A stretch of DNA of 53,499 bases, taken from contig VBBR01000036.1 in the NCBI GenBank assembly GCA_005881615.1, positions 4,847-58,345 on the forward strand, read 5' to 3'. Source of the DNA: Candidatus Bathyarchaeota archaeon. GTDB lineage: Archaea; Thermoproteota; Bathyarchaeia; 40CM-2-53-6. Every line of letters starts with the position of its first letter. Positions within the stretch are counted from its first letter, which is position 1. Position numbers and translations under genes: made by a program. The notes below the pieces were generated by a model that saw only the letters and a program-made list of their open reading frames with translations, did not search any database and was not told the DNA's origin. This document shows positions 8,393 through 53,011 of this stretch, piece after piece.

Positions 8393-8893
8393 TCACCTTG
8401 TTACCGAGAAAGTGAACTGGTTGTTTCGCGTGGTAATCATCAGTATTGTGTACGAGTAGCCAGACGTGAATGTGTAAGCTGAGCCTGACAAGGTGCAGCC
8501 GCTGCAACTGCTTCCTATAGGGAAGTTAATCGCAACGCTCTTGTTGGGGGCTATCGTTGGTCCCGCGCCGGTGGCGTAACTGTATTGATACGAGTTGCCG
8601 TTCGAGTCTTTCACATAGTACGTTTGGATTGTTGCGTTCGCCGTTCCTAGGTTATTGATGTACGCTGTCATATTAGTGCCGTTTGAGAATGCTCCAGAAT
8701 TCGTAACGTAGTTCAAGTTCTCTTGGCCCGTAGTGGGATGTACTAGTAAGGTGCCGAGTAGTCCTGTCGACCAGGCGTAGACCATGACGGATGCAACGAC
8801 GACGATGACGACCATGAGTAGTGCTGCAAGAATCGTGTCAATGCCTTTCTTGTTGTTGAGACATTTACGAATTGATTTCATTTCTTGGCTCAC
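8393..8893 (-). CDS. Archaeal type IV pilin (major pilin candidate; ATG at 8881 is an alternative start)
   Basis: KKG|IDTILAALLMVVIVVVASVMVYAW; QENL, YINNLG. Confidence 0.92.
   Translation of the reverse strand: MSQEMKSIRKCLNNKKGIDTILAALLMVVIVVVASVMVYAWSTGLLGTLLVHPTTGQENLNYVTNSGAFSNGTNMTAYINNLGTANATIQTYYVKDSNGNSYQYSYATGAGPTIAPNKSVAINFPIGSSCSGCTLSGSAYTFTSGYSYTILMITTRNNQFTFSVTR
8736..8821. repeat. 86-bp exact direct repeat, copy 1 (pilin N-terminal helix coding region)
   Basis: GGATGTACTAGTAAGG...ACCATGAGTAG identical to 9253-9338. Confidence 0.95.
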
Positions 8894-8897
8894 CTGT

Positions 8898-9398
8898 TTA
8901 CCGGGTCACCGAGAACGAGAATTGGGTGTTCCGTGAAGTCACCATGGTGATAGTGTAAGAGTAGCCTGAGGTGAATGTGAAGGCGTTTCCGGTCAGAGTG
9001 CAGGAAGATCCACAGCTCGTGTTGATGAGGACGATGATTCCCCTCACTTGGTTCGGAGCGATCACTGGAGGTGCATTGGGTGCTGCCCACGATATCCGTG
9101 AATACTGGTTTCCGCTGGAGTCTTTGACAAAGTAGCTGGTGAGAGTAACGTTTACTGTGCCGAGTTCTCGAATGTTCATTGTAACGTTCTGGCTGTTGAA
9201 GAAAGTGCAAGGGCTACATGCCTCAAGGGCCAAATTCTCTTGGCCTGTGGTAGGATGTACTAGTAAGGTGCCGAGTAGTCCTGTCGACCAGGCGTAGACC
9301 ATGACGGATGCAACGACGACGATGACGACCATGAGTAGAGATGCGAGTATAGTGTTGATGCCTTTCTTGTTCCCTGTTATTTTTTCCAATTTTTTCAC
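8898..9398 (-). CDS. Archaeal type IV pilin, paralog of 8393-8893
   Basis: KKG|INTILASLLMVVIVVVASVMVYAW; similar C-terminus FTSGYSYTI...FSVTR. Confidence 0.92.
   Translation of the reverse strand: MKKLEKITGNKKGINTILASLLMVVIVVVASVMVYAWSTGLLGTLLVHPTTGQENLALEACSPCTFFNSQNVTMNIRELGTVNVTLTSYFVKDSSGNQYSRISWAAPNAPPVIAPNQVRGIIVLINTSCGSSCTLTGNAFTFTSGYSYTITMVTSRNTQFSFSVTR
9253..9338. repeat. 86-bp exact direct repeat, copy 2
   Basis: Identical to 8736-8821. Confidence 0.95.
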
Positions 9399-11756: not shown

Positions 11757-12971
11757 CTAGTGATGGTCGGTACTACTCAGCATGGTTCCGCTAACCTTCG
11801 CAAGGTGGGTTGGCTTCGAGGCATCGACTCCAGGGATTACCGTAGGCGTCGGGTTCCCAATCAACGCTTCAGCTGCCTCGCCTTTTGAACGGTCGAACCT
11901 CAACCGCCCACACCGTGAGATGTTTATCGCAGCAACCACATCACGGTCGACCCAAATCTCACACTTCCAGCACCGAAGAGCTCTTCTTGGTCTGCCGTCC
12001 GATTGGAGTCTCTCCCCGTATTTCGGACAGATGCTACTGGTCCCAAATGTCTCACGTCTCGACAAACGTACAACGGGTAAACCTATCCAAGCCGCTTTAT
12101 ACTCGATCTGAGATTGAGCCTTGCCAAATGACCATCCGTTCATCCTCCCTCGGAAGCTCTTCCCCTGCCAGTTTCCCTTTCGGTAGAGTCGTCGTATCCC
12201 GCGGATGCTCTCTAATACAACTGCCTTCTTTTCTTCGAACGCTCGGTGCACAATCGATTTCGTGGCATTGTGAAGGAGATTAAGGGCACGGTTTTGTCGG
12301 CGCTTACCATATTTCATCGCAAGCCTCTGCCCGATCCGGCGATCGTTTCTCTTGAAGGACGATACTATGCTCACGGTTGTGTTGGCTATTTCAACGGCCA
12401 TAGACAGATCGTATTGGATAACTGTCTCTTCGTCTCCGCAAGTCAAGTTGCGCAGGTTTCGGTCAACACCTACCGTGCCTGTGCACTCAAGCGTCACAAC
12501 CTCCTTTGAGATACAGAGACTCAGTGTGGTAGCAGTAAGTGTGAAGGAGCGCACACGCAGGGTTTTGTCGGATAGTACTAAGGCGGTATGCTTCGTCAGA
12601 GGAATTGTTTCGTATGCCTTTCGGCCTATCGGTATTTGCAAGTGACCATTCTGAATCTTGAAGTTGTAGCACGAGATCAGCAGGGGCTTAACTGCGTATG
12701 GACTCTTTGTAGCGAAACCTCTCCTCAGAGATTTCTTTCTTGAGGCCAAGATACCTGCGGCTCGGGATATTGCACAGAGCTTGTAGCAGGATGGAGAAGG
12801 GTAGCCCTTGAGCTCTCTGTATGAGAGGAGGCACAGACTCTTGAGGGACGAGACATTCTGCGAAAGCCCGATCACTATGCATCGATTTACCATTCTTCTG
12901 AATAAGTCGAGAAGTTCCAGAACCTCGGTCGACGGAGAATAGTTCTGCTTTACTGACTTTTTTGCAAGCAC
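11757..12971 (-). CDS. tnpB: TnpB RNA-guided endonuclease (IS200/IS605-type), no adjacent transposase
   Basis: RuvC-I VGVDRN, RuvC-II VLESI, QIEYKAAW, Zn finger CPKY/CWKC, RuvC-III DRDVVAAINI. Confidence 0.92.
   Translation of the reverse strand: MLAKKSVKQNYSPSTEVLELLDLFRRMVNRCIVIGLSQNVSSLKSLCLLSYRELKGYPSPSCYKLCAISRAAGILASRKKSLRRGFATKSPYAVKPLLISCYNFKIQNGHLQIPIGRKAYETIPLTKHTALVLSDKTLRVRSFTLTATTLSLCISKEVVTLECTGTVGVDRNLRNLTCGDEETVIQYDLSMAVEIANTTVSIVSSFKRNDRRIGQRLAMKYGKRRQNRALNLLHNATKSIVHRAFEEKKAVVLESIRGIRRLYRKGNWQGKSFRGRMNGWSFGKAQSQIEYKAAWIGLPVVRLSRRETFGTSSICPKYGERLQSDGRPRRALRCWKCEIWVDRDVVAAINISRCGRLRFDRSKGEAAEALIGNPTPTVIPGVDASKPTHLAKVSGTMLSSTDHH
11784..11909 (-). ncRNA. Putative omega-RNA scaffold / right end of the tnpB element
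   Basis: Overlaps the tnpB 3' end, as TnpB omega-RNAs do; homology to the 351-bp repeats stops at GGTTCC (11784); subterminal hairpin. Confidence 0.65.
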
Positions 12972-13114
12972 AGGGCACCGATTCTGGAACGCGCCCAGTT
13001 AGGTCGAAGAGAGACCCGAAAATGAATCAGCACAGGCCTCCCTAACTTCATAAGGTGTTCGGCCGAAAGCTTAAAACTGAACAGCCCAGACCTCAAACTC
13101 GGCTGTTCCAAAAA

Positions 13115-22406: not shown

Positions 22407-22455
22407 TGGGATTCAACAGCTACGCCCTAGTCCGTGCAAAATCCGTTCATAACGG

Positions 22456-22806
22456 GGTTCTGTTAACTTATCGTTGGATAGGTTAACTTGCTCTCATCGA
22501 CTCCAGGGATTACCGTCGTCGTCGGGTTCCATTTCATCGCTTCAACTGGGAGCCCTTCCGCCTCAAGCCCACTCAGGGTCTTTCTTGGCCTGGAACGGTC
22601 GAACCTCAACCGCCCCCAGAACAGGCACTAAGCCTATCATCTATTGTAAGCCTCTCTCACACCCGTAAGCCTCCTTCCAGGTCAATAGACCATTCACAGG
22701 CCTCTTACACAGGCGCTCATACACGACGACGCACCACCATACTCCCTCTGCAAAATAATAGTTTGAGGCCCGTGAAAGTACGATCCAGCGAAGAGTTAAC
22801 AGAGCT
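22456..22806 (-). mobile_element. 351-bp MITE-like element, copy 1; IS6-like TIRs; tnpB-derived omega-RNA-like right half
   Basis: Ends GGTTCTGTTAACTT and GAGTTAACAGAGCT; 8-bp TSD CATAACGG (22448-55, 22807-14); 6 substitutions versus copy 2. Confidence 0.92.
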
Positions 22807-22862
22807 CATAACGGTAAAGTGCAATGCGGCCCGGGTGTTAGAGACCGAGAAAGGCTGACACC

Positions 22863-23255
22863 ATGAAGACAAACCCATTGACCGATGTTTCCGCGGAAAA
22901 ATCCATCGCACGTGAGCTGGCAAAGCGCCGAGCCTTCATTGTCCTGTTTATCGTGTCGATCGAGATTGTTGGAGCCTTCATAGGCTTAGAAGGCGACATG
23001 CTCGCTCATGCGCTAGACGATTACGCGATTCTAGCAATATCGGTCGTAGCACTCGTAGTGATTGGGGCCATGTGGAAGAAGCAGTCGCTTGCTGGTCTAA
23101 GGAAGCAGCACAACATTTTGCTCGCCCTCCTTATCGTCGCATTAGTATTCCAGATCTACGCATTTGTCGCAGAGGCCAACGATCCTACTGATCTTGGGAA
23201 TGAGTATCCTTCCTTGACCATTCTGGTCTTAATGGTAATCAACAAGTTCATCTGA
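22863..23255 (+). CDS. Small 4-TM membrane protein, unknown function
   Basis: 130 aa, four hydrophobic helices, HALDD motif. Confidence 0.75.
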   Translation: MKTNPLTDVSAEKSIARELAKRRAFIVLFIVSIEIVGAFIGLEGDMLAHALDDYAILAISVVALVVIGAMWKKQSLAGLRKQHNILLALLIVALVFQIYAFVAEANDPTDLGNEYPSLTILVLMVINKFI

Positions 23256-23324
23256 CGGGCGACGCGAATCGTATGATGAACGAGGAATCGTCTGATAGGT
23301 CGATAGTGTTGATCTGGTTGCGGC

Positions 23325-23495
23325 CTACTCTGGTACTGAGGTTGTAATGAGTTTTCCATCGACGACTTTGACGAATAGGTAGCGGTTGTCTCTGAGAATG
23401 ACGGTCACTTCATTCTCCCCCTCTTCAATCTCCAAGATTTCTTGTCCTCTGATCCCGTCATATTTTGCCAAAGTGAGATTCGCCTGCTTCATCAT
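23325..23495 (-). CDS. Small hypothetical protein (56 aa, below the ORF-track cutoff)
   Basis: Read manually: MMKQANLTLAKYDGIRGQEILEIEEGENEVTVILRDNRYLFVKVVDGKLITTSVPE; co-oriented with the upstream gene. Confidence 0.55.
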   Translation of the reverse strand: MMKQANLTLAKYDGIRGQEILEIEEGENEVTVILRDNRYLFVKVVDGKLITTSVPE

Positions 23496-23554
23496 TCCGA
23501 TGATCTGGCCACATAAAGATGACGGCTGTCATTTTGCGGTGAAATCGGAAAAAC

Positions 23555-24112
23555 TCAGGCGATCTGAATTTTCAGAGGAAGCGATTTCCCAGAAGCTTCT
23601 CCTCGCTCTGTGAAAACGTGCTTGCCCCACTTGGCGCTAACGTTGGCTCCTAGAGTGTGATTGCCCTTCCCAAGTGAGCTTGCTGGGAGCTCGAAGCTCC
23701 GCGTCACGTTGAACATCATCTCTCTCGCTTCCTCCTCAGTTTTCGGATAGAGAATCGTCTCGAATTCTGTTGCCACAGTCATCCAGACTCGATGAGGAAG
23801 CTCGGGGTTTCGCGTCCAGAAGAAAACTGCCCTCCGAACGAATTTCTCTTCTTTCAACGGCTTAGGAAGCAAGCGAAGCCTAGACTTGCGGAGTTCAGCC
23901 TTGAAGGCCATCCGCAGCCCACCGTCATGCTGGTCGTAGGCAGCTTCCCAGAATTTCTGATGAAAGTTTCGGCGGACGACGCCGTCAAGCCGGAAACCCA
24001 CAGTGAAGGCAAGATTATCGTCAACCTTAGCGTTAGACGGCGAGCACTTGACTGTAACATTCTCGATACGCGCCCAGCTACCGGCGTCCTGCTTCACAAC
24101 AGATTTCTGCAA
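23555..24112 (-). CDS. Hypothetical protein
   Basis: 185-aa ORF with protein-like composition, divergent from the peptidase. Confidence 0.7.
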   Translation of the reverse strand: MQKSVVKQDAGSWARIENVTVKCSPSNAKVDDNLAFTVGFRLDGVVRRNFHQKFWEAAYDQHDGGLRMAFKAELRKSRLRLLPKPLKEEKFVRRAVFFWTRNPELPHRVWMTVATEFETILYPKTEEEAREMMFNVTRSFELPASSLGKGNHTLGANVSAKWGKHVFTERGEASGKSLPLKIQIA

Positions 24113-24233
24113 TTTTTTCTCACTAGGCCCGAGGATGGCGGTCTTGCGCTTCCACGCTGAAAAACCTTGGCATCAGCACTCGACTCTCTGAAGCGATTAT
24201 AAGAACAGCCCGTAACGGACATCTGAGATAGCC

Positions 24234-26081
24234 ATGTCATCAAACCGTCCGAGATATGGTTTCGATCGATACTCTAGCGTACGCATAGCCTATGGACCAA
24301 GCTTCGCGCCTGATGGTCAGCATATCTCGTTCATCAGTGACATTACCGGAGTCCCGCAAGCCTGGATTCTAGACCTTGCAACAAGTCGAATAGACCAGTT
24401 GACACTGTTCAACGAGCGCGTTTCTTCGGCCGTCTTTTCGCCGACCGGCCAAAACCTAGGACTCTCGATGGACCCTGGAGGCGGCGAGAAGCACCAAGTA
24501 TGGACTTTGGACATGGAGAATCTCGCGGCGAAGAAATTGACCGTTGGAGACGATTGGATCCGCGTCATCGGCTCCTTCTCTCCTAGCGGTGAGTCGGTGT
24601 GCTATGCGTCAAACGAGAGAGATGAGAAATTCTTCGACATCTACACAAGCGTTCTTGTGAGCGGAGAGAAGAATCTCGTCTACCAGAACGACGCTACGAA
24701 CTATCCCTTGGACTGGGTAGACAAAGATCGAATTCTCTTCACAAAGGCAAACACCAACCTAGACAATGATCTCTATCTGCTCTGGCCTGAAACGGGGGAG
24801 ATAGCTCACCTCACAAAGCACTCCGGTGAAGCGAGCTTTGACTATGCTGGCCATGCCAAAGACATGAGCACGTTGTATGTTCTGACAAGCAAAGATCGGG
24901 AATTCCTCCAGCCCGCTACTATCGATGTTGGAACCGGACACTTGGATTATCTGATCGAAGAGGACTGGGACGCGATAGGTGGGAGTGTCTCCCATGATAC
25001 TCGCTTGCTAGCGTACTTCCGGAACGTCGACGGGGCTAGCAGATTGCATATTTACGACCTGGAGAAGAAACAGGATTCTGTGGTTGATGGTCTTCCTCTA
25101 GGGGCTTTTGAGTCGCCTGTAGTTTCGGGCCGCAACCTAATGGATTGGAGCCCTGATTCCAAACGTCTCGTGTTCAGCTTCCAGGGCCCGAAGCACAACC
25201 TGAACCTCTGGCTCTACGATGTTGAAGACAATTTGGTTAGGCAAGTCACGTTTGCCCCGACCGGGGCCATTCCAACTTCAAATCTCGTCGAGCCCGAAGG
25301 TTTGAGATTTCCCAGTTTCGACGACCTCGTCATTCCTGTGTGGGCCTACCGGCCGGCTAGTCGTCGAGAATCGCTGCCAACGGTTGTCTTTGTCCACGGG
25401 GGCCCGGAAAGCCAAGAGACTGCCCGGTTCAACGTCATCATCCAATACCTGGTCAACCGCGGCTTCCTGGTCCTGGCCCCGAACGTGCGTGGTAGCACAG
25501 GCTATGGCAAGAAAGGCGTCCATCTGGATGATGTCGATAAGCGCCTCGACTCTGTTCGGGACCTAGAATATCTAGTAAAGTGGGCGGTTGGAAAAGGCCT
25601 CGCAAAGCAAGACAGAGTAGGAATCGTAGGCGGCAGCTACGGCGGCTTCATGGTTCTGTCGGCAATAACAGAATACCCGGACATATGGGCAGCTGGAGTT
25701 GATCTCGTAGGCATCGCGAATTTTGAGACGTTTCTGGAAAACACGGCGCGCTGGAGACGACACTTGAGAGAGGCAGAATACGGTAGCCTCGAAAACGACA
25801 GGGAACTTTTCAAACGGATCTCACCAATCCACAAGGTGGACAAGATCCAGGCGCCCCTGCTGGTAATCCATGGGGCCAACGATCCCAGAGTCCCAGTAGG
25901 GGAAGCGGAGCAGATAGTGGAGAGATTGAAAGAACTTGGAAGACACGTCGAATTTTTGAGATTCGAGGACGAGGGACATGGGATCGCGAAGATCCCGAAC
26001 AGGATCAAAGCCTACACTGCGATCGGCGACTTTCTAGAACGGACCTTGCTTGCTGCAGACAAACCGTCGCCGAATATGTAG
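24234..26081 (+). CDS. S9 family peptidase (acylaminoacyl peptidase, beta-propeller plus alpha/beta hydrolase)
   Basis: HGGPESQ, NVRGSTGYG, GGSYGG, HGANDPRVP, DEGHG. Confidence 0.95.
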   Translation: MSSNRPRYGFDRYSSVRIAYGPSFAPDGQHISFISDITGVPQAWILDLATSRIDQLTLFNERVSSAVFSPTGQNLGLSMDPGGGEKHQVWTLDMENLAAKKLTVGDDWIRVIGSFSPSGESVCYASNERDEKFFDIYTSVLVSGEKNLVYQNDATNYPLDWVDKDRILFTKANTNLDNDLYLLWPETGEIAHLTKHSGEASFDYAGHAKDMSTLYVLTSKDREFLQPATIDVGTGHLDYLIEEDWDAIGGSVSHDTRLLAYFRNVDGASRLHIYDLEKKQDSVVDGLPLGAFESPVVSGRNLMDWSPDSKRLVFSFQGPKHNLNLWLYDVEDNLVRQVTFAPTGAIPTSNLVEPEGLRFPSFDDLVIPVWAYRPASRRESLPTVVFVHGGPESQETARFNVIIQYLVNRGFLVLAPNVRGSTGYGKKGVHLDDVDKRLDSVRDLEYLVKWAVGKGLAKQDRVGIVGGSYGGFMVLSAITEYPDIWAAGVDLVGIANFETFLENTARWRRHLREAEYGSLENDRELFKRISPIHKVDKIQAPLLVIHGANDPRVPVGEAEQIVERLKELGRHVEFLRFEDEGHGIAKIPNRIKAYTAIGDFLERTLLAADKPSPNM

Positions 26082-26194
26082 ATCCTCTCTGTCCAATCGT
26101 TCTTACCCAAACTAGAATGGGAAAGAGCGGGATAGAGACTCCCGTAGCTCTTCGATTTCCAAGCAAAAATGCTTTGGAAGCTGTTTTTCCGGGT

Positions 26195-27859
26195 TTAGGT
26201 GCCGGTTATGGGTTCGATGTGTACGGCGCTGCAGCCGCATCCGTCGGCGTGCTTTCCGCGTCGTAGTTGTCCGCGGTAGAGTCGTGATTCGAGTTTCTCG
26301 CCATTCTTCTTCTCCCACTCTTCCACGCTGATACCGTACTTTTTCTGTATGCGGTCACGGTACCATTCGGGGATGACGTTGAAGCTGCAGAACGGAATGA
26401 TCCTCATGTCTGGTGTGAGGTAGTGTATGTCGCATCGCTGTAGTCGCTCTTCGTCCTGGTTGTACTTGTCTTGGAAGTGCATCATGCCGAGGAACATGCT
26501 TCGGACGTGGAACTGTCCCACTGAGCTGTAGTCGTGTTTCAGCAATGCCCCTACGAGCAGCTTGCTGAGGTTGAGTCCTGCTGGTTGCTTGTCTTTCTCG
26601 ATGAAGCTGTTCAGCTTGGTAATGAATTTTGCAGCGACCAAGTATTTGTTTGTGCCCGAGTTCAGCTCGTCTGTCTTCTCGTCAAGGTACTCGAATAGTC
26701 CTTTGAGATCGACGAAGGAGGTGATTGGGACCATCTTCCTGGTGTCTTTGTCCTCGAACACGTATGTTCCAGCGCCGCACGCGAAGTGTATCGACAGCTC
26801 GTACTGGGGTCGCTTCGTGAATGCTTCCACGAAGTGGGTTACTGGTGAGCAGCTTGGGACTGGGAACCACGCGTCTCGTGGAATCTCTCCGTTGGTCTGC
26901 TCTTCGATCCTCTCGATGCAGTCTGGAATGGTAATTCGGTACTTTTCCCTCTCTTGCTTTTTCATTCGTCCCGTTAGAGACACTGGCTGGTAGCTGATTG
27001 CTCGGACGATGTCGATGTTTCTCTGGGCGAAGCGGAGTATGCCGCCTAGCTCGTGATCATTGATCGACTTGATGACTGTCGGGACGAGCACTACTCCGAG
27101 GTTTGCCTTTCGGCAACTCTCGATTGTATAGGGTGCTTCCCAGTGGTTCTTCGGGTTGGTCTTCGGACTGACTCCGTCGAAGCTCATGTAGAGGTTGCTG
27201 AGCCCGTTATCGCGTAGGATATGGGCTAGGTTGGGGTTGAGTGCGAGGTTGATTCCGTTCGTATTGAGCTGGATGTGGTCTACGCCCTCTTCTTTGATGA
27301 TCTTGACGATCTCTGGAAGCTCGGGTCGTAGGGTCGGTTCTCCTCCAGTTATCTGGAGCGAGTTTCCTGGGACCGGCCTCTCAGCTTTGAGAGCTCGGAC
27401 CATTTCCTTGACCTGGTCGAGGCTTGGCTCGTATACGTACGCTCCTTCGAGGCCCTTTTTGACATAGAAGAAACAGTACCAGCAGGTCAAGTCGCAACGG
27501 TTAGTAACGATGATATTCGCAAGACCGGTATGGCTGAGGTGATTAGAGCACAAGCCGCAGTTCGCGGGGCATGCGCAACTCTCAATCGGGACGTTCGGTG
27601 CATGGGTTCCTTTGCCGTCAGACCAGTAGGTCGCGAATTTCTGATACATGTCGTACGAGCCGAAGTAGAGCTCTTCTGTCTCACCGTGTTCTGGGCAGGT
27701 CTTAGTCATGAAGACCTTGCCTTCCCGCTCGAAGACGGTGCTTGGCAGAATGCGGTTGCACTCTGGGCAGATGCTTTGCGTTCGGCGAATGAATTGTCCT
27801 ATTTGCTTCTGCGGCGACTGTAGTTCCGCTGGTAGTTCGATTTCTAATAGTGCCATCAT
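26195..27859 (-). CDS. tes: Tetraether lipid synthase (Tes/GDGT-MAS, radical SAM)
   Basis: N-terminal CPEC...CPEH, CPANCGLCSNH, TNRCDLTCWYC, GGEPT, C-terminal IIPFC. Confidence 0.88.
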   Translation of the reverse strand: MMALLEIELPAELQSPQKQIGQFIRRTQSICPECNRILPSTVFEREGKVFMTKTCPEHGETEELYFGSYDMYQKFATYWSDGKGTHAPNVPIESCACPANCGLCSNHLSHTGLANIIVTNRCDLTCWYCFFYVKKGLEGAYVYEPSLDQVKEMVRALKAERPVPGNSLQITGGEPTLRPELPEIVKIIKEEGVDHIQLNTNGINLALNPNLAHILRDNGLSNLYMSFDGVSPKTNPKNHWEAPYTIESCRKANLGVVLVPTVIKSINDHELGGILRFAQRNIDIVRAISYQPVSLTGRMKKQEREKYRITIPDCIERIEEQTNGEIPRDAWFPVPSCSPVTHFVEAFTKRPQYELSIHFACGAGTYVFEDKDTRKMVPITSFVDLKGLFEYLDEKTDELNSGTNKYLVAAKFITKLNSFIEKDKQPAGLNLSKLLVGALLKHDYSSVGQFHVRSMFLGMMHFQDKYNQDEERLQRCDIHYLTPDMRIIPFCSFNVIPEWYRDRIQKKYGISVEEWEKKNGEKLESRLYRGQLRRGKHADGCGCSAVHIEPITGT

Positions 27860-27957
27860 ATACCACTCTGAGTAGTAAATACGCGTAGCGGCACCAGTAT
27901 TAATGCTTTTGACACCAGTCACAAGATGAAATAGGGTACAACCCTGAGGGGTGTTTC

Positions 27958-28359
27958 ATGCCTGTTCCGGGCTCTCTCAAGCGCCAACCAGTAAACAAGA
28001 GCGAGATCGCTCAGCTTCTGGAACACCAATTCAATCTCCCAGCAATGGAAACGCTTGCCTATCTTCAGATGCTCGAACGAGACAGCGTTGGAGTAGATGA
28101 GCTCGCTGAAACTCTCGCCCTCTCAAAAGAGGAGACAAGCGACCTTCTTCAAGCAATGATTAGCAGAGGTCTCATCATACGGGCACCAAGATCAAAAGAT
28201 GCCTTCAGCGCACTTCATCCAAGGATGACAATGACCAACATCTTCAAGATCTACGAGAAGGACCTTGTTCAGTCTCTCAGGGACCGTAGAGCTACAGTTG
28301 ACAGAGTGGTCAACCTCTTGACACCTATCTATGAGGAAAAGAAACCGGATTTGAACTAG
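27958..28359 (+). CDS. TrmB-like HTH protein
   Basis: FNLPAMETLAYLQML...LAETLAL...MISRGLI...FSALHP. Confidence 0.75.
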   Translation: MPVPGSLKRQPVNKSEIAQLLEHQFNLPAMETLAYLQMLERDSVGVDELAETLALSKEETSDLLQAMISRGLIIRAPRSKDAFSALHPRMTMTNIFKIYEKDLVQSLRDRRATVDRVVNLLTPIYEEKKPDLN

Positions 28360-28979
28360 GCTTCTTCAGAGGCTTGAGGGGGAAGCGGATTAGGACTGTA
28401 CCGTTTTTTGTCCTTGTTCTCCTGTAGAATATCCGCAAACGGCTCGCCCTCTTCTTCAGACTCAGCCTTTTCGTCAGCTTCCTGAGACTGGGTGCTCTCC
28501 TCAGCTGAAGAATCCTCTGCGGCTAGGTTCGTTTCGTCCATGGATTCCGTTGGAGATGGGTTCGCTTCGACCGGCACAGTAGGAGGAACGTCCGGAGCCG
28601 GGTGTGCCAGTGTCTCTGCTAAAGGGGTCTCGGGAACGACCGCGATTGCAGTGGACTCCTCGGCAGAGGCCTCAAGCGACGGCTCCTCCGGCTCGTCAGA
28701 CGGAGCCGTGACGTGTTCTCTTTCCCGAGGGATTATCGCTCGGGGGTCCTTGACACCATAGAACCGGTCTGTGAAGTAAGAATAGACATCTATCGTCTGA
28801 GCAGCGGGATGAGCAGGAAAATCGTCTTTGAGCTGGCAGAGAGCGCAGAGGACCGTTGCGTGTCCAGTCTGCTTGTCAATCGTTACCCTAACAGCTTCTT
28901 CGCCGCATCGTGGGCATGTGAAGACGGTTGGTAGTTTCTTCTTGACGATTCTAACTACTCGGCGTCTTCTTCTCCCCAA
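28356..28979 (-). CDS. elf1: Transcription elongation factor Elf1 with long acidic tail
   Basis: MGRRRRR..KLPTVFTCPRCG..CALC..IDVYSYFTD. Confidence 0.88.
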   Translation of the reverse strand: MGRRRRRVVRIVKKKLPTVFTCPRCGEEAVRVTIDKQTGHATVLCALCQLKDDFPAHPAAQTIDVYSYFTDRFYGVKDPRAIIPREREHVTAPSDEPEEPSLEASAEESTAIAVVPETPLAETLAHPAPDVPPTVPVEANPSPTESMDETNLAAEDSSAEESTQSQEADEKAESEEEGEPFADILQENKDKKRYSPNPLPPQASEEA

Positions 28980-29196
28980 CCCAAACGACTCTTGTCATCC
29001 AAGAGGGATGGAGTCAATATTTACCTTTTGTCGGTGGTTCTTCCCTCGAAAAACTAGCTACAAGCATGGGTCAATGGGAACATCAGTTGCATAGGCGAAA
29101 ACCCTACTAGTGCCCCTTGAAACGGCGGATCCACTTCGTTCTCGGACAAAGGGATACGGAACGGTTAATCCGCTAAGAATCCCACTGGAATTCTCA

Positions 29197-29460
29197 TGAG
29201 AAACGGAGACCTAGCGAGTATCGGAAAAATACTGGCGCTTGCTGGTTTTTTCTCGGTGATGTTCGGGGTTTTCTCTATTCGCTGCTGATTCGGGAGGCCT
29301 GTGTGGCGACATACTCCGACCAAGCAATGGGCCAGGTTGCACAACTAACTACAGTCCCCTAGTTCTGCCCACAATCATCGGAGGAGCGTTGATAGCGGCA
29401 GGCGCTTGGCTATTCTTCGTGTTCAAGCCACAGAGCATGATGCCATCGAGTCCAATCTAA
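29197..29460 (+). pseudogene. Frameshifted small 2-TM membrane protein
   Basis: MRNGDLASIGKILALAGFFSVMFGVF continues in another frame as LFAADSGGLCGD...LVLPTIIGGALIAAGAWLFFVFK; shift near 29270. Confidence 0.45.
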
Positions 29461-29578
29461 CTACCGGCGGAGTGAACCGCGACACCAGCCTCCTCGAATT
29501 GGAATTTGCATCGGACGGAAGCTATTTGCTGTCAACACGGGAAAGGATACCCTAGAACGGGCACTCAAGGCGGCCTGT

Positions 29579-29775
29579 GAAACTATGGAAATACGCTCTG
29601 AAAATGCCCTCTTTCTGAGAAAGGTTCCAAATCGCGTTCCCGATCAGTATCTGAATCAACTATTCAGAAAGAATTTCTGAAACCTCTTTCGAAACTTGGT
29701 TGTTGAAACGACCTCTCTGAACCACTATTTGAAACGGGTCCCGGAATCCCTTCCTGGAAACCGTAACCGTAAATT
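29579..29775 (+). repeat. Phased array of GAAAC-like motifs, 12-14-bp spacing
   Basis: GAA starts at 29653, 29667, 29679, 29691, 29705, 29719, 29731, 29744, 29757; inverted repeat TTCAGAAA-GAA-TTTCTGAA at 29663-29681. Confidence 0.65.
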
Positions 29776-29836
29776 TTCCGGGCCCCCGGACCCCTACTCA
29801 ATTCTCGCCCGCGACAGCGAGGGAACGAAAGTATAG

Positions 29837-30187
29837 GGTTCTGTTAACTTATCGTTGGATAGGTTAACTTGCTCTCATCGACTCTAGGGATTACCGTCGT
29901 CGTCGGGTTCCATTTCACCGCTTCAACTGGGAGCCCTTCCGCCTCAAGCCCACTCAGGGTCTTTCTTGGCCTGGAACGGTCGAACCTCAACCGCCCCCAG
30001 AACAGGCACTAGGCCTATCATCTATTGTAAGCCTCTCTCACACCCGTAAGCCTCCTTCCAGGTCAATAGACCATTCACAGGCCTCTTGCACAGGCGCTCA
30101 TACACGACGACGCACCACCATACTCCCTCCGCAAAATAATAGTTTGAGGCCCGTGAAAGTACGATCCAGCGAAGAGTTAACAGAGCC
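29837..30187 (-). mobile_element. 351-bp MITE-like element, copy 2
   Basis: Ends GGTTCTGTTAACTT and GAGTTAACAGAGCC; 8-bp TSD AAGTATAG (29829-36, 30188-95). Confidence 0.92.
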
Positions 30188-30240
30188 AAGTATAGCAAGC
30201 GCTTATTACACGCGATTTTCCGCCAGTTCAACCGGTAACT

Positions 30241-47934: not shown

Positions 47935-48047
47935 CGCCGGGAGTGGGATTCGAACCCACGAGGGCGTGACGCCCAACGGCTGTCGTGTCCTGGCCCTTAC
48001 CTCTTGAGATCTCGAGGCCGTCGCTTTAACCACTCAGCCATCCCGGC
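47935..48047 (-). tRNA. tRNA-Ser(CGA) with 29-nt insert in the anticodon loop (about 47982-48010)
   Basis: GCCGGGA acceptor stem, long variable arm GGGCGTCACGCCC, TTCGAAT loop, G73, ACGGC/GCCGT stem. Confidence 0.9.
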
Positions 48048-52216: not shown

Positions 52217-52606
52217 TTAGAGCCCCCAACTTGTCTTTCCCACTGGCGTGATTCTGAGGTATAGCTTCTCGTCTTTCTCTTTGGTCTCAACAAGCCCGGT
52301 GACCTCGAGGCCACGAGGGATTAGCCGGTTGGCTGATTCTAAATCATCGACAAGGAGGGTGATCTTTTCCGCGTCTAGATCTTGGAATCTTGGACTGTAT
52401 TTCAGGTTCCAACCACTCAAGTATAGGTAGCGTCCGTCGAACTCGTAAATTACGGGAACGATGTGGGGTTGGGAGTCCTCACAGACGAACGCGATTCTTG
52501 CCAAGCTTCTCTCCATCAGGTATCGGAATTCTCTCTCGGTGAAACCTCTGACACCGTCTTTATGTCGCATATCTCCGTTAGATTGTTTGTTGCTGATCAT
52601 TTTCAT
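52217..52606 (-). CDS. Pyridoxamine 5'-phosphate oxidase-like (PPOX) protein, possibly divergent
   Basis: FTEREFRYL..LARIA..PHIVPV..LLVDD..PRGLEVTG..SWGL. Confidence 0.7.
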   Translation of the reverse strand: MKMISNKQSNGDMRHKDGVRGFTEREFRYLMERSLARIAFVCEDSQPHIVPVIYEFDGRYLYLSGWNLKYSPRFQDLDAEKITLLVDDLESANRLIPRGLEVTGLVETKEKDEKLYLRITPVGKTSWGL

Positions 52607-53011
52607 TCACCTATTCGTGAAATAGTTGTCCAGCGTATCTTTGTTGGTAGTCATCAGTCGATGAAGCCGAGTCCAACGGCGAGATGTGGGCTCTGGCTCG
52701 AAAGAGCCGACTGGGCCGATGCTGGGTAGAAGGTTGCCATGACCAAGCGTAAAACCCTGACCTGCAAACGGTCTAGCTGGCCCGGTGAATGCCAGGCGAG
52801 AGCCGTGAGGTTCGCGGCCGTCGCGTCTGCATGTGAAGCAATGGTACAGGAACCCCTGACTGAAGGTAATCCTGAAAGTCGATGCCGATGAGTCAAGCCC
52901 CAGATCAAATCGAAGACTTGACAGAACCTGTCGCATCATGTCTGAACTAGCTACTGGTCAGTCACGCTTATATACTTGGTAGTCCGGGGAAACTAAGTGG
53001 GTATTAGTTAG

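Follow-up and report, generated by a model that had tools for sequence, protein, structure and literature searches.

The question raised by this locus is whether a repeat that carries the 3' end of a tnpB gene can be a transposon moved by an unrelated DDE transposase, with its right end serving TnpB as a guide-RNA scaffold in trans. The stretch of DNA analyzed here (the window) is 53,499 nucleotides long and comes from a Candidatus Bathyarchaeota archaeon. In this window, the original prediction recognized two 351-bp copies that differ by six transitions, have 14-bp imperfect terminal inverted repeats (TIRs), and are each flanked by their own 8-bp TSD. All three points were borne out. The alignment of the two copies gave six differences, all of which are transitions, and CATAACGG and AAGTATAG are found as perfect duplications on both flanks of copies 1 and 2, respectively. 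The TIRs (GGTTCTGTTAACTT vs GGCTCTGTTAACTC) are paired at 12/14 positions and the repeat continues to ~20/24, which lengthens it to about 24 bp. This element, referred to here as MITE-A, is found in a soil archaeon; it encodes no transposase, and its only coding content is a 52-codon tnpB remnant. The genome contains three full and two partial copies of it. The coordinates of the features are collected in Table 1.

Table 1 Features of the window (RE, right end; LE, left end)
Feature	Position	Strand	Remark
Old tnpB-only element, same family	11784..13038	-	Decayed termini (RE GGTTCCGCTAACC..., LE GGCCTGTGCTGA...)
ORF of the old tnpB element, 404 aa	11757-12971	-	
MITE-A copy 1, 351 bp	22456..22806	-	Plus strand shows RE first; sense (minus) taken from tnpB
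Copy 1 RE-side 8-bp TSD CATAACGG	22448..22455	.	Minus-strand reading would open the predicted guide (8 nt)
Copy 1 RE terminal inverted repeat GGTTCTGTTAACTTATCGTTGGAT	22456..22479	-	Inner part folds into the terminal hairpin as its 3' arm
tnpB 3'-end-derived block, omega-RNA scaffold-like	22480..22625	-	Helices H1, H2, and terminal hairpin
Copy 1 LE terminal inverted repeat	22783..22806	-	Last base mutated in copy 1
Copy 1 LE-side 8-bp TSD CATAACGG	22807..22814	.	
TAM-like motif, copy 1	22815..22817	-	Plus TAA, element sense TTA; directly 5' of LE-side TSD
MITE-A copy 2, 351 bp	29837..30187	-	6 transitions away from copy 1
Copy 2 RE-side 8-bp TSD AAGTATAG	29829..29836	.	
Copy 2 LE-side 8-bp TSD AAGTATAG	30188..30195	.	
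TAM-like motif, copy 2	30196..30198	-	Plus CAA, element sense TTG
Third MITE, 358 bp, same superfamily	52571..52928	+	Omega-like RE block
Third MITE TSD TGTCGCAT	52563-52570 and 52929-52936		TTA at 52560-52562

The two window repeats are copies of a MITE. Tabulation of copies, TSDs, and empty alleles in this genome and its relatives, as suggested with the original prediction, showed that the TIRs and TSDs recur and revealed two orthologous empty sites, in the congeneric genomes G018 and G012, each of which holds a single copy of CATAAYRG where copy 1 has its duplicated 8-mer. A genome-wide scan for a perfect 8-bp TSD combined with a TIR match of at least 12/14 returned only this TIR family, besides one likely chance pair. 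When the TSD match was set at 7/8 or better, 11 TIR pairs were found in the genome, with sizes of 147–393 bp and 1275–1281 bp, and 24 once relatives were included; TIRs and 8-bp TSDs were present at every well-preserved copy. In four soil metagenomes, both MITE junctions are bridged by contigs, the depth of the MITE is 5–15 times that of its flanks, and other flanks also abut position 22455/22456.

Transposons with GGYTCTGTYAAS termini, TIRs of ~24 bp, and TSDs of 8 bp form a superfamily in Bathyarchaeia, of which the window repeats are members. The MITE originally described is one of several families, and its TIRs are shared by tnpB-only elements. MITEs of the superfamily are 147–411 bp long and retain the right-end 160–230 nt, which correspond to the tnpB 3' end. 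The tnpB-only class (1.25–1.33 kb) has no other gene between the TIRs, has its stop codon within the right TIR, and keeps the RuvC D-E-D residues intact. Three such elements (C43, C178, and C47) contain intact ORFs of 400–405 aa with VGVDRN, VLE, CxxC..CxxC, and DRDxxAA motifs. The encoded protein matched the TnpB profile TIGR01766 above its cut-off and NF040570 below it (E=4e-25, 88.9 bits vs a 100-bit cut-off), and ISDra2 TnpB was matched among PDB structures at E=4e-7. In the window, the old tnpB element has lost by mutation the TAA stop that normally lies in the TIR, and its frame therefore reads through. Since these TIRs also bound tnpB-only elements that are intact, TnpB itself appears to be cargo of the DDE family.

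The autonomous elements of the superfamily are 2.4–4.5 kb long and encode a 375–400-aa IS6-like DDE transposase, with SWIM and zinc-ribbon domains at its N-terminus, together with variable passenger genes. This transposase was found in 60 of the 301 Bathyarchaeia genomes sampled. It scored 48.8–64.3 bits on PF13610, over the 27-bit cut-off, while its best match was NF033587 (IS6), at 116.9 bits, just under the 125-bit cut-off. Of 24 autonomous-element pairs flanked by a perfect 8-bp TSD, ~21 were usable, and 7 of these usable pairs had GGTTCTGTYAAS termini. The TIR of one autonomous element (L091) equals that of the window MITE across the first 14 nt, and the TIRs of the TnpB elements match it at 22/23 positions. 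No tnpB was found within the autonomous DDE elements, which carry other passenger genes instead; indeed, tnpB and the DDE gene were never found within one element, and the two kinds of element co-occur in three of the five DDE-rich genomes checked.

The predicted homology of the MITE right end to the tnpB 3' end, with an in-frame remnant, was recovered as well. Positions 22495–22548 match 11822–11875 at 87%, the first 22 nt being identical, and MITE positions 138–163 match window positions 11887–11912 at 96%; the open minus-strand frame reads WGRLRFDRS...NPTTTVIPGVDESKLTYPTIS, with a stop that falls within the TIR. When 51 right ends were compared on a fold drawn from these same sequences, 88.8% of the cells could pair, vs 27–42% with the partners slid. 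On the same fold, 15 pairs were changed on both sides, vs 3–8 in the slid controls, and the independent compensatory events among them are few because most changes separate a few subfamilies. None of 500 shuffles reached the observed pairing values. The H2 variants are GCUCUC/GAGAGC, CGGGGC/GCCCCG, CGGAGC/GCUCCG, and GCCUCC/GGAGGC, and the window tnpB has CGAGGC/GCCUCG; in the window MITE, H2 and the terminal hairpin have one mismatch each. The terminal hairpin is partly made of the TIR and ends 6 nt from the end of the element.

A one-sided motif was found at the insertion sites. W-T-R stands directly 5' of the left-end TSD in 23/23 oriented insertions (binomial p=2e-28), with TTR in 19/23, and on the mirror side in 3/23. 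This is the position required of a TAM if a guide made up of the TSD and the right flank is to cut the empty site. The tnpB element L185, which has an internal stop, shows AGG in place of W-T-R. It is possible, although we think it rather unlikely, that the motif reflects only which targets the IS6-like transposase prefers, with a polarity due to unequal ends and no relation to a TnpB TAM. Indeed, W-T-R was found beside the TSD on one side in 10 of ~21 autonomous elements without tnpB, where about 1 in 8 would be expected; as roughly half of these elements show it, it must be at least partly a target preference. In these elements it lies within a longer common context, ATAAAnnTTG, and in two cases (L083 and L166) it adjoins the left-type TIR. 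However, the motif is stricter in the scaffold carriers (23/23 vs 10/21, Fisher p=4.6e-5) and falls exactly at the TAM position for a guide that begins with the TSD. It should be noted that in IS605 elements the TAM is described as the target motif of the transposase (10.1101/2023.03.14.532601), so both readings may hold at once.

The tnpB-derived block could also be inert, with no RNA made or used, in a MITE that is real and moved by a DDE transposase. Such an element could have arisen by internal deletion of a tnpB-only element that kept both ends, the right one incidentally with the tnpB 3' end. The 52-codon frame, which is still open, suggests a recent derivation, and transposase binding may account for the conserved subterminal sequence. 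Moreover, an Rfam search of the block gave no family at E<=10, and none of the sequencing runs listed as holding the MITE sequence is recorded as RNA. Among 46 right ends with the H2 subtype of the MITE (AGAGC), none was attached to an ORF of more than 180 aa, and a full-length tnpB of this subtype was not found. Nevertheless, we consider this explanation unlikely, as the helices are compensated across subfamilies and the hairpin is unique to the right end, the left TIR having no counterpart. The scaffold is also more conserved than the remaining non-coding MITE: in 10 copies of a second family, MITE-B, mean identity was 0.902 in scaffold columns and 0.814 elsewhere (p=1.2e-5). In addition, the block is retained by at least three MITE families whose left halves are unrelated, and W-T-R was present on the left-end side in 16/16 MITE-size insertions. 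The resemblance to an omega-RNA scaffold put forward originally is thus supported by higher conservation and by a covariation-backed fold, and the right-end block appears to behave like such a scaffold.

As to what moves these elements, a DDE partner with the same TIRs had been predicted, and partners with a Y1 or serine TnpA that insert without duplication would have spoken against it. The partners found carry the IS6-like DDE gene and perfect 8-bp TSDs instead. Elements of this kind with near-identical TIRs occur in the same genus and family, so the prediction stands for related Bathyarchaeia but not for the assembly of this genome (89% complete, 193 contigs), in which no DDE gene of the six Pfam DDE families tested was found; the MITE copies may therefore now be immobile here. 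Across the genus, the IS6-like DDE gene is intact in only 2/22 genomes, and one of these two (G003) had no MITE match. The lack of recognizable DDE genes in this genome and in most element-rich congeners, as well as the lack of any other gene between the TIRs, would fit tnpB-only elements that are autonomous, with TnpB or a host factor making TIR-dependent insertions with 8-bp TSDs. This is very improbable, given the DDE elements just described, the fact that MITEs without tnpB have moved, and the dispensability of TnpB for IS605 transposition as stated in PMC13565253. An ordinary IS200/IS605-type PATE moved by a Y1 TnpA, which would likewise retain the 3' end of tnpB in the way described for omega-RNA PATEs (10.1101/2023.03.14.532601), is hardly conceivable: it is contradicted by the empty sites and by the TIRs and 8-bp TSDs, neither of which IS200/IS605 elements have according to the available text of PMC13565253, and the genome gave no match to PF01797, the Y1 transposase family. 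There is good support for the tnpB-only elements and the MITEs being moved in trans by the DDE transposase.

Taken together, the observations are probably best explained by a DDE-moved MITE family that carries an omega-RNA-like block, with TnpB acting in trans. From the sequences at hand, we infer that TnpB may use the MITE RNA in trans. The right-end block would be transcribed as an omega-RNA, with a guide made up of the TSD and the right flank. The empty allele, which consists of W-T-R, the TSD, and the flank, would then present a TAM and a target that TnpB would cut, after which the insertion would be regained or spread through recombination with an occupied copy. Immunity is proposed for the occupied allele because ...GAACC stands in place of the TAM. 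The MITEs would thus rely on the DDE transposase to move and on trans-supplied TnpB for retention or homing. IS26-type transposition is replicative; if the same is true of the present elements, repair would have no excision to act on, which counts against the proposal. Since the putative guide-RNA scaffold sits in elements with the ends and 8-bp footprints of an IS6-like cut-and-paste family, it seems that an unrelated transposase carries and spreads a module of an RNA-guided nuclease.

More tentatively, an IS6-like archaeal DDE lineage might have taken over TnpB and its guide RNA as cargo and rebuilt the IS605 logic around the TSD, with the TAM beside it and the TSD itself as the guide seed; the MITEs would be free-standing guide-RNA cassettes that gain a new guide at each insertion and depend on TnpB in trans. 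We regard this scenario as doubtful. If true, it would amount to a distributed gene drive, with dozens of unrelated insertions protected or spread by a single nuclease, and the strict one-sided motif might mean that TAM recognition helps to choose or fix insertion sites.

Compared with IS6/IS26, for which the consensus end is given as GGTTCTGTTGCAAA (Harmer and Hall 2019, PMC6807381), the IS6-like ends with 8-bp TSDs of the original prediction hold: the TIR begins with GG, has G at position 7, and agrees with the consensus in all of its first 9 nt (GGTTCTGTT). The partner transposase resembles that family in its PF13610 and NF033587 matches but differs from its members, as described there, in its added N-terminal zinc-binding domains and size, and in TIRs of more than 20 bp. 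The autonomous elements, with their length and passenger ORFs, also depart from the compact single-gene 0.7–0.9-kb format. Those authors themselves question the placement of archaeal members in the IS6/IS26 family.

The omega-RNA PATEs (Meers et al. 2023, 10.1101/2023.03.14.532601) are likewise described as protein-less and non-autonomous, with the omega-RNA end kept, and they would need TnpB in trans and have a flank-derived guide per copy, as the window MITE would in our reading. In the available text, PATEs have subterminal hairpins without TIRs or TSDs and are moved by a Y1 TnpA, whereas the present elements are bounded by TIRs and 8-bp TSDs and have a partner of the IS6-like DDE type; a guide seed equal to the TSD is predicted here, unlike in PATEs. 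Among the DDE-associated TnpB branches, the IS630-linked one, whose ends are symmetrical (Altae-Tran et al. 2023, PMC10691335; PMC13565253), has a prokaryotic TnpB in a TIR-bounded DDE-family transposon, as in the present case. In the DDE-TnpB families named in the accessible text (IS630, ISL2, and IS1031), the DDE gene lies beside tnpB, and the supplement of PMC10691335 may list the present clade. In contrast to those branches, the present family is IS6-like, has 8-bp TSDs, keeps tnpB and the DDE gene in separate elements, and has MITE derivatives. Fanzor TIR elements (10.1101/2023.08.09.552727) are described as non-autonomous and nuclease-only, with TIRs, TSDs, and a partner elsewhere, as here, and in both cases the TIR contributes to a stem-loop adjoining the guide. 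Fanzors, as reported in that source, occur in eukaryotes or viruses and have TSDs that are short and fixed (TTAN), whereas the present elements are archaeal, with a variable 8-mer TSD, a candidate partner, and MITE derivatives. Judged against these accounts, the related known kinds are omega-RNA PATEs, DDE-linked TnpB, and Fanzor TIR elements, and the present family is a variant of these.

Two 351-bp repeats in the window, hereafter MITE-A, differ at 6 positions, all of them transitions, and each has a perfect 8-bp target-site duplication (TSD) of its own, CATAACGG and AAGTATAG. Their ends are inverted repeats (TIRs) that pair at 12 of 14 positions, or at about 20 of 24 on extension. These observations confirm the two copies, TSDs and inverted-repeat ends of the original prediction. 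That prediction also held that part of the element derives from the 3' end of tnpB and has kept its frame, and this was borne out: the 3' end of the window tnpB is 87% identical to MITE positions 40-93 and 96% identical to positions 138-163, and the minus-strand frame is still open (WGRLRFDRS...NPTTTVIPGVDESKLTYPTIS), with its stop inside the TIR. The repeats are MITEs that arrived by insertion; indeed, the empty allele, a MITE-free locus with CATAAYRG in single copy, is present in two congeneric genomes (G018 and G012). In four soil metagenomes, contigs bridged both MITE junctions, MITE depth was 5-15x flank depth, and several alternative flanks adjoined position 22455/22456. No contig joining across the MITE was found in the four mapped runs, which is uninformative either way.

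Features of the window (positions in nucleotides of the window)
Feature	Position	Strand	Length	Remark
MITE-A copy 1	22456-22806	minus-strand sense	351 bp	48 bp upstream of ORF 22863-23255
MITE-A copy 2	29837-30187	minus-strand sense	351 bp	
Third MITE	52571-52928		358 bp	TSD TGTCGCAT
tnpB ORF	11757-12971	minus	404 aa	
tnpB element	~11784-13038			both termini decayed
Direct repeat, unit 1	8714-8854		141 nt	92% identity to unit 2
Direct repeat, unit 2	9231-9371		141 nt	
Adjacent ORF 1	8393-8893	minus	166 aa	
Adjacent ORF 2	8898-9398	minus	166 aa	
tRNA match	47935-48047		113 nt	71-position model

The window also encodes an F420-hydrogenase beta subunit, TiaS, and an archaeal pilin, which together indicate an archaeal host. 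The 141-nt direct repeat lies in the two adjacent ORFs, which are a tandem gene duplication. The tRNA is probably an intron-containing archaeal tRNA, since its match is longer than the model.

The survey of genomic copies proposed with the original prediction returned 35 BLASTN matches from MITE-A, a second MITE family (MITE-B), and tnpB right ends. Among them were three full and two partial MITE-A copies, two loci limited to MITE positions 1-162, 13 loci over positions 1 to ~110 (mostly tnpB right ends), and 13 over positions 31-162 only, about 12 of which are MITE-B. The latter family is 388-411 bp long; its TIRs are GGTTCTGTCAAGTCTTCGG / GGCACTGTCAACTCTTCGG, and its copies have 8-bp TSDs of their own. 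A regex search counted 41 right ends in the genome, with a loose pattern that includes chance matches. Three tnpB-only elements (C43, C178, and C47; 1275-1281 bp) have the same ~24-bp TIRs and perfect 8-bp TSDs. Their sole gene encodes an intact 400-405-aa TnpB with a zinc finger and the RuvC D-E-D residues, and GTTAAC of the right TIR supplies its TAA stop codon. The window tnpB is an old member of this TIR family whose right-TIR stop is mutated (GTTAAC to GTTAGC), so that the ORF reads through to its present length; its match in the related genome G007 may be an orthologous, vertically inherited copy. The third MITE in the window belongs to the same superfamily and has its own scaffold variant, a degenerate left TIR (ATCTCCGTTAGA...), and TTA directly 5' of its left-end TSD. 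When the whole genome was scanned for TIR pairs of any kind flanked by a perfect 8-bp TSD, this family alone was returned, barring one likely chance pair.

One full MITE-A copy (G000 C152:9037-9387) lacks a TSD; its left flank reads GGTTCTGG, as does that of another right end (C149:640), which suggests either inter-copy recombination or insertion into another terminus. In a Nitrososphaera MAG record (L052, 4905-6186), a TnpB at 51% identity lies between GGCCTTGTTAACTT / GGCTCTGTTAACTT and is flanked by a 7-8-bp duplication (TAAAACC). Elements bounded by TIRs with tnpB as their only gene are therefore not confined to Bathyarchaeia.

An IS6-like DDE partner had been predicted as well, and this stood: autonomous elements with matching TIRs and TSDs were found in related genomes. 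They were not found in this assembly (89% complete), in which neither an IS6-type DDE nor an IS200/IS605 transposase (Y1 TnpA) was detected. Among 22 genomes of the genus, PF13610, PF01609, and PF00665 each matched in two, and PF12762, PF01610, and PF00872 in none. The PF13610 ORFs (383 and 401 aa) contain SWIM, zinc-ribbon, and DDE_Tnp_IS240 domains, and their best NCBIfam match is IS6, at 116.9 bits, which narrowly misses the 125-bit cut-off. With one of these ORFs as a query, matches were detected, often in several copies, in 60 of the 301 genomes that were sampled from the class. Short flanks at the DDE loci of G007 and G003 contained one terminus only, and wider flanks contained both TIRs and the TSDs. 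The autonomous elements of related genomes are 2.4-4.5 kb long, with perfect 8-bp TSDs, variable passenger ORFs, and TIRs of the same kind: GGTTCTGTCAAGTCTCCGG in L072, GGTTCTGTCAAGTCTTCGG in L079 and L083, and GGTTCTGTTAACTTG... in L091 and L167. The first 14 nt of the L091 TIR are those of the window MITE, and the TIR of tnpB-only elements from a sister genus (GGYKCTGTTAACTTGTCGGCTCA) agrees with that of L091 at 22 of 23 positions. A single TIR/TSD system is common to the MITEs, the tnpB-only elements, and the IS6-like DDE elements. The terminal consensus of IS6/IS26 is given as GGTTCTGTTGCAAA, with 8-bp TSDs (PMC6807381). No tnpB lay with a DDE within one TIR pair in seven autonomous elements, nor adjacent to a DDE by position in five DDE-rich genomes, in three of which tnpB-only and DDE elements co-occur. 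We infer that the DDE mobilizes the MITEs in trans.

Six of the autonomous elements (L072, L079, L083, L086, L091, and L093; 2.7-3.2 kb), with variable passenger ORFs beside the DDE, behave as cargo-carrying insertion sequences. A recurring passenger of ~295 aa presumably resembles a proteasome or HslV-type subunit, judging from an impression of its sequence. Others (L165, L090, and L171-L172) are often inserted beside or into one another's ends, so that their flanks read ...GAACC or GGTTCTG, and several of their TSDs are palindromic (TTACGTAA, TGTTAACA). Such a pattern may mean that the family targets its own termini, or else that boundaries were placed wrongly.

A candidate TnpB target motif (TAM) was found beside the left-end TSD. 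The comparison covered 23 insertions whose two TSD copies agree at 7 or more of 8 positions (16 MITE-size and 7 tnpB-size); each was oriented by its scaffold, and no two share a TSD. Counting back from the left-end TSD, all 23 read T at -2 and a purine (A or G) at -1; at -3, 19 have T and the other 4 have A (WTR). At the mirror position past the right-end TSD, 3 of the 23 show the motif (binomial p=2e-28). The motif is one-sided, so an unoccupied locus has the order WTR, TSD, right flank. Three further elements have ATG, TTG, and AGG, the AGG element being a tnpB whose frame is interrupted by a stop. WTR next to the TSD, on a single side and inside ATAAAnnTTG, is also seen in about 10 of 21 autonomous elements that do not carry tnpB, which indicates that transposase preference accounts for at least part of the motif; scaffold-bearing elements keep to it more strictly than these do (Fisher p=4.6e-5). 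In its extended form, ATAA(A/G)nnTTG, the target context is similar to a promoter-like, A/T-rich box, and insertion into promoter regions is possible.

A compensated fold in the right-end block, which derives from the tnpB 3' end, is supported by covariation. From an alignment of 51 right ends, non-redundant and read in the sense of tnpB, RNAalifold returned a terminal hairpin and a long-range helix with compensatory pairing. A four-helix structure, drawn from the same alignment that was used to score pairing, has 88.8% of cells paired, compared with 27-42% when partners were slid by 1-3 columns. Pairs changed on both sides number 15 against 3-8 in the slid controls, most of these changes setting a few subfamilies apart, and 0 of 500 shuffles reached the observed values. 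Variants of the long-range helix are GCUCUC/GAGAGC, CGGGGC/GCCCCG, CGGAGC/GCUCCG, and GCCUCC/GGAGGC, with CGAGGC/GCCUCG in the window tnpB. The terminal hairpin, present at the right end only, co-varies with TIR subtype; its 3' arm is formed by TIR positions ~7-18, leaving AGAACC ahead of the flank. In 10 MITE-B copies, the family to which this test was confined, scaffold columns were more conserved than the remainder (identity 0.902 vs 0.814, p=1.2e-5). Single-sequence folding gave z = -1.72 and showed helix H1 and the terminal hairpin only. Rfam had no match to the MITE at E<=10 and, at the gathering threshold, only two tRNAs in the window. Among 46 right ends that share the helix subtype of the MITE, there is none with a long ORF joined to it, and none of the sequencing runs listed as containing the sequence is recorded as RNA. 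The block is predicted to be transcribed as an omega-RNA with a flank-derived guide.

A right-end transcript would carry the TSD and right flank as its guide, and the occupied allele would present ...GAACC in place of the TAM. TnpB would cleave empty alleles, resulting in homing or retention, and MITE RNAs would be loaded on TnpB supplied by other elements. IS26 transposes by copy-in. If the DDE does likewise, the gain would be spread among genome copies, not post-excision repair.

In the accepted view, TnpB re-cuts the scarless donor joint that IS605 or IS607 excision leaves. A 2026 review argues that the rarity of OMEGA modules among DDE transposons follows from this role (PMC13565253). The present lineage is abundant and natural, places candidate TAM, left end, right end, and predicted guide around the 8-bp TSD of a DDE family, and adds putative guide cassettes that are non-coding, along with an identified candidate for the transposase. 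It makes testable RNA-guided homing for TSD-forming transposons, how a TAM comes to match a second, unrelated transposase, and the use of one nuclease by several guide-only elements. Its compact archaeal TnpBs, with WTR as a short candidate TAM, are of practical value, and the system should be of clear interest to the field.

With no DDE in this assembly, TnpB was considered as its own transposase, a reading that was dropped when IS6-like autonomous elements proved to have TIRs that match. An identity as protein-less IS200/IS605 derivatives (PATEs) was rejected in view of the TIRs and TSDs and of the search for a Y1 transposase, which found none in this assembly. In the literature searched, we found no link of TnpB to IS6-like elements or Bathyarchaeia, no omega-RNA-bearing MITEs, and no TAM adjoining a TSD; the supplements of PMC10691335 may list the clade. 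Several components are already known: omega-RNA PATEs that require TnpB in trans in IS605 (10.1101/2023.03.14.532601); DDE-linked TnpB branches with symmetrical ends in IS630 (PMC10691335), and further such families in ISL2 and IS1031 (PMC13565253); and Fanzors in non-autonomous elements with TIRs and TSDs, where the TIR enters the guide-proximal stem (10.1101/2023.08.09.552727). In IS605, the TAM is the target motif of the transposase (10.1101/2023.03.14.532601); the predicted geometry of TAM, end, and guide is the same in the present elements, here rebuilt around a TSD.
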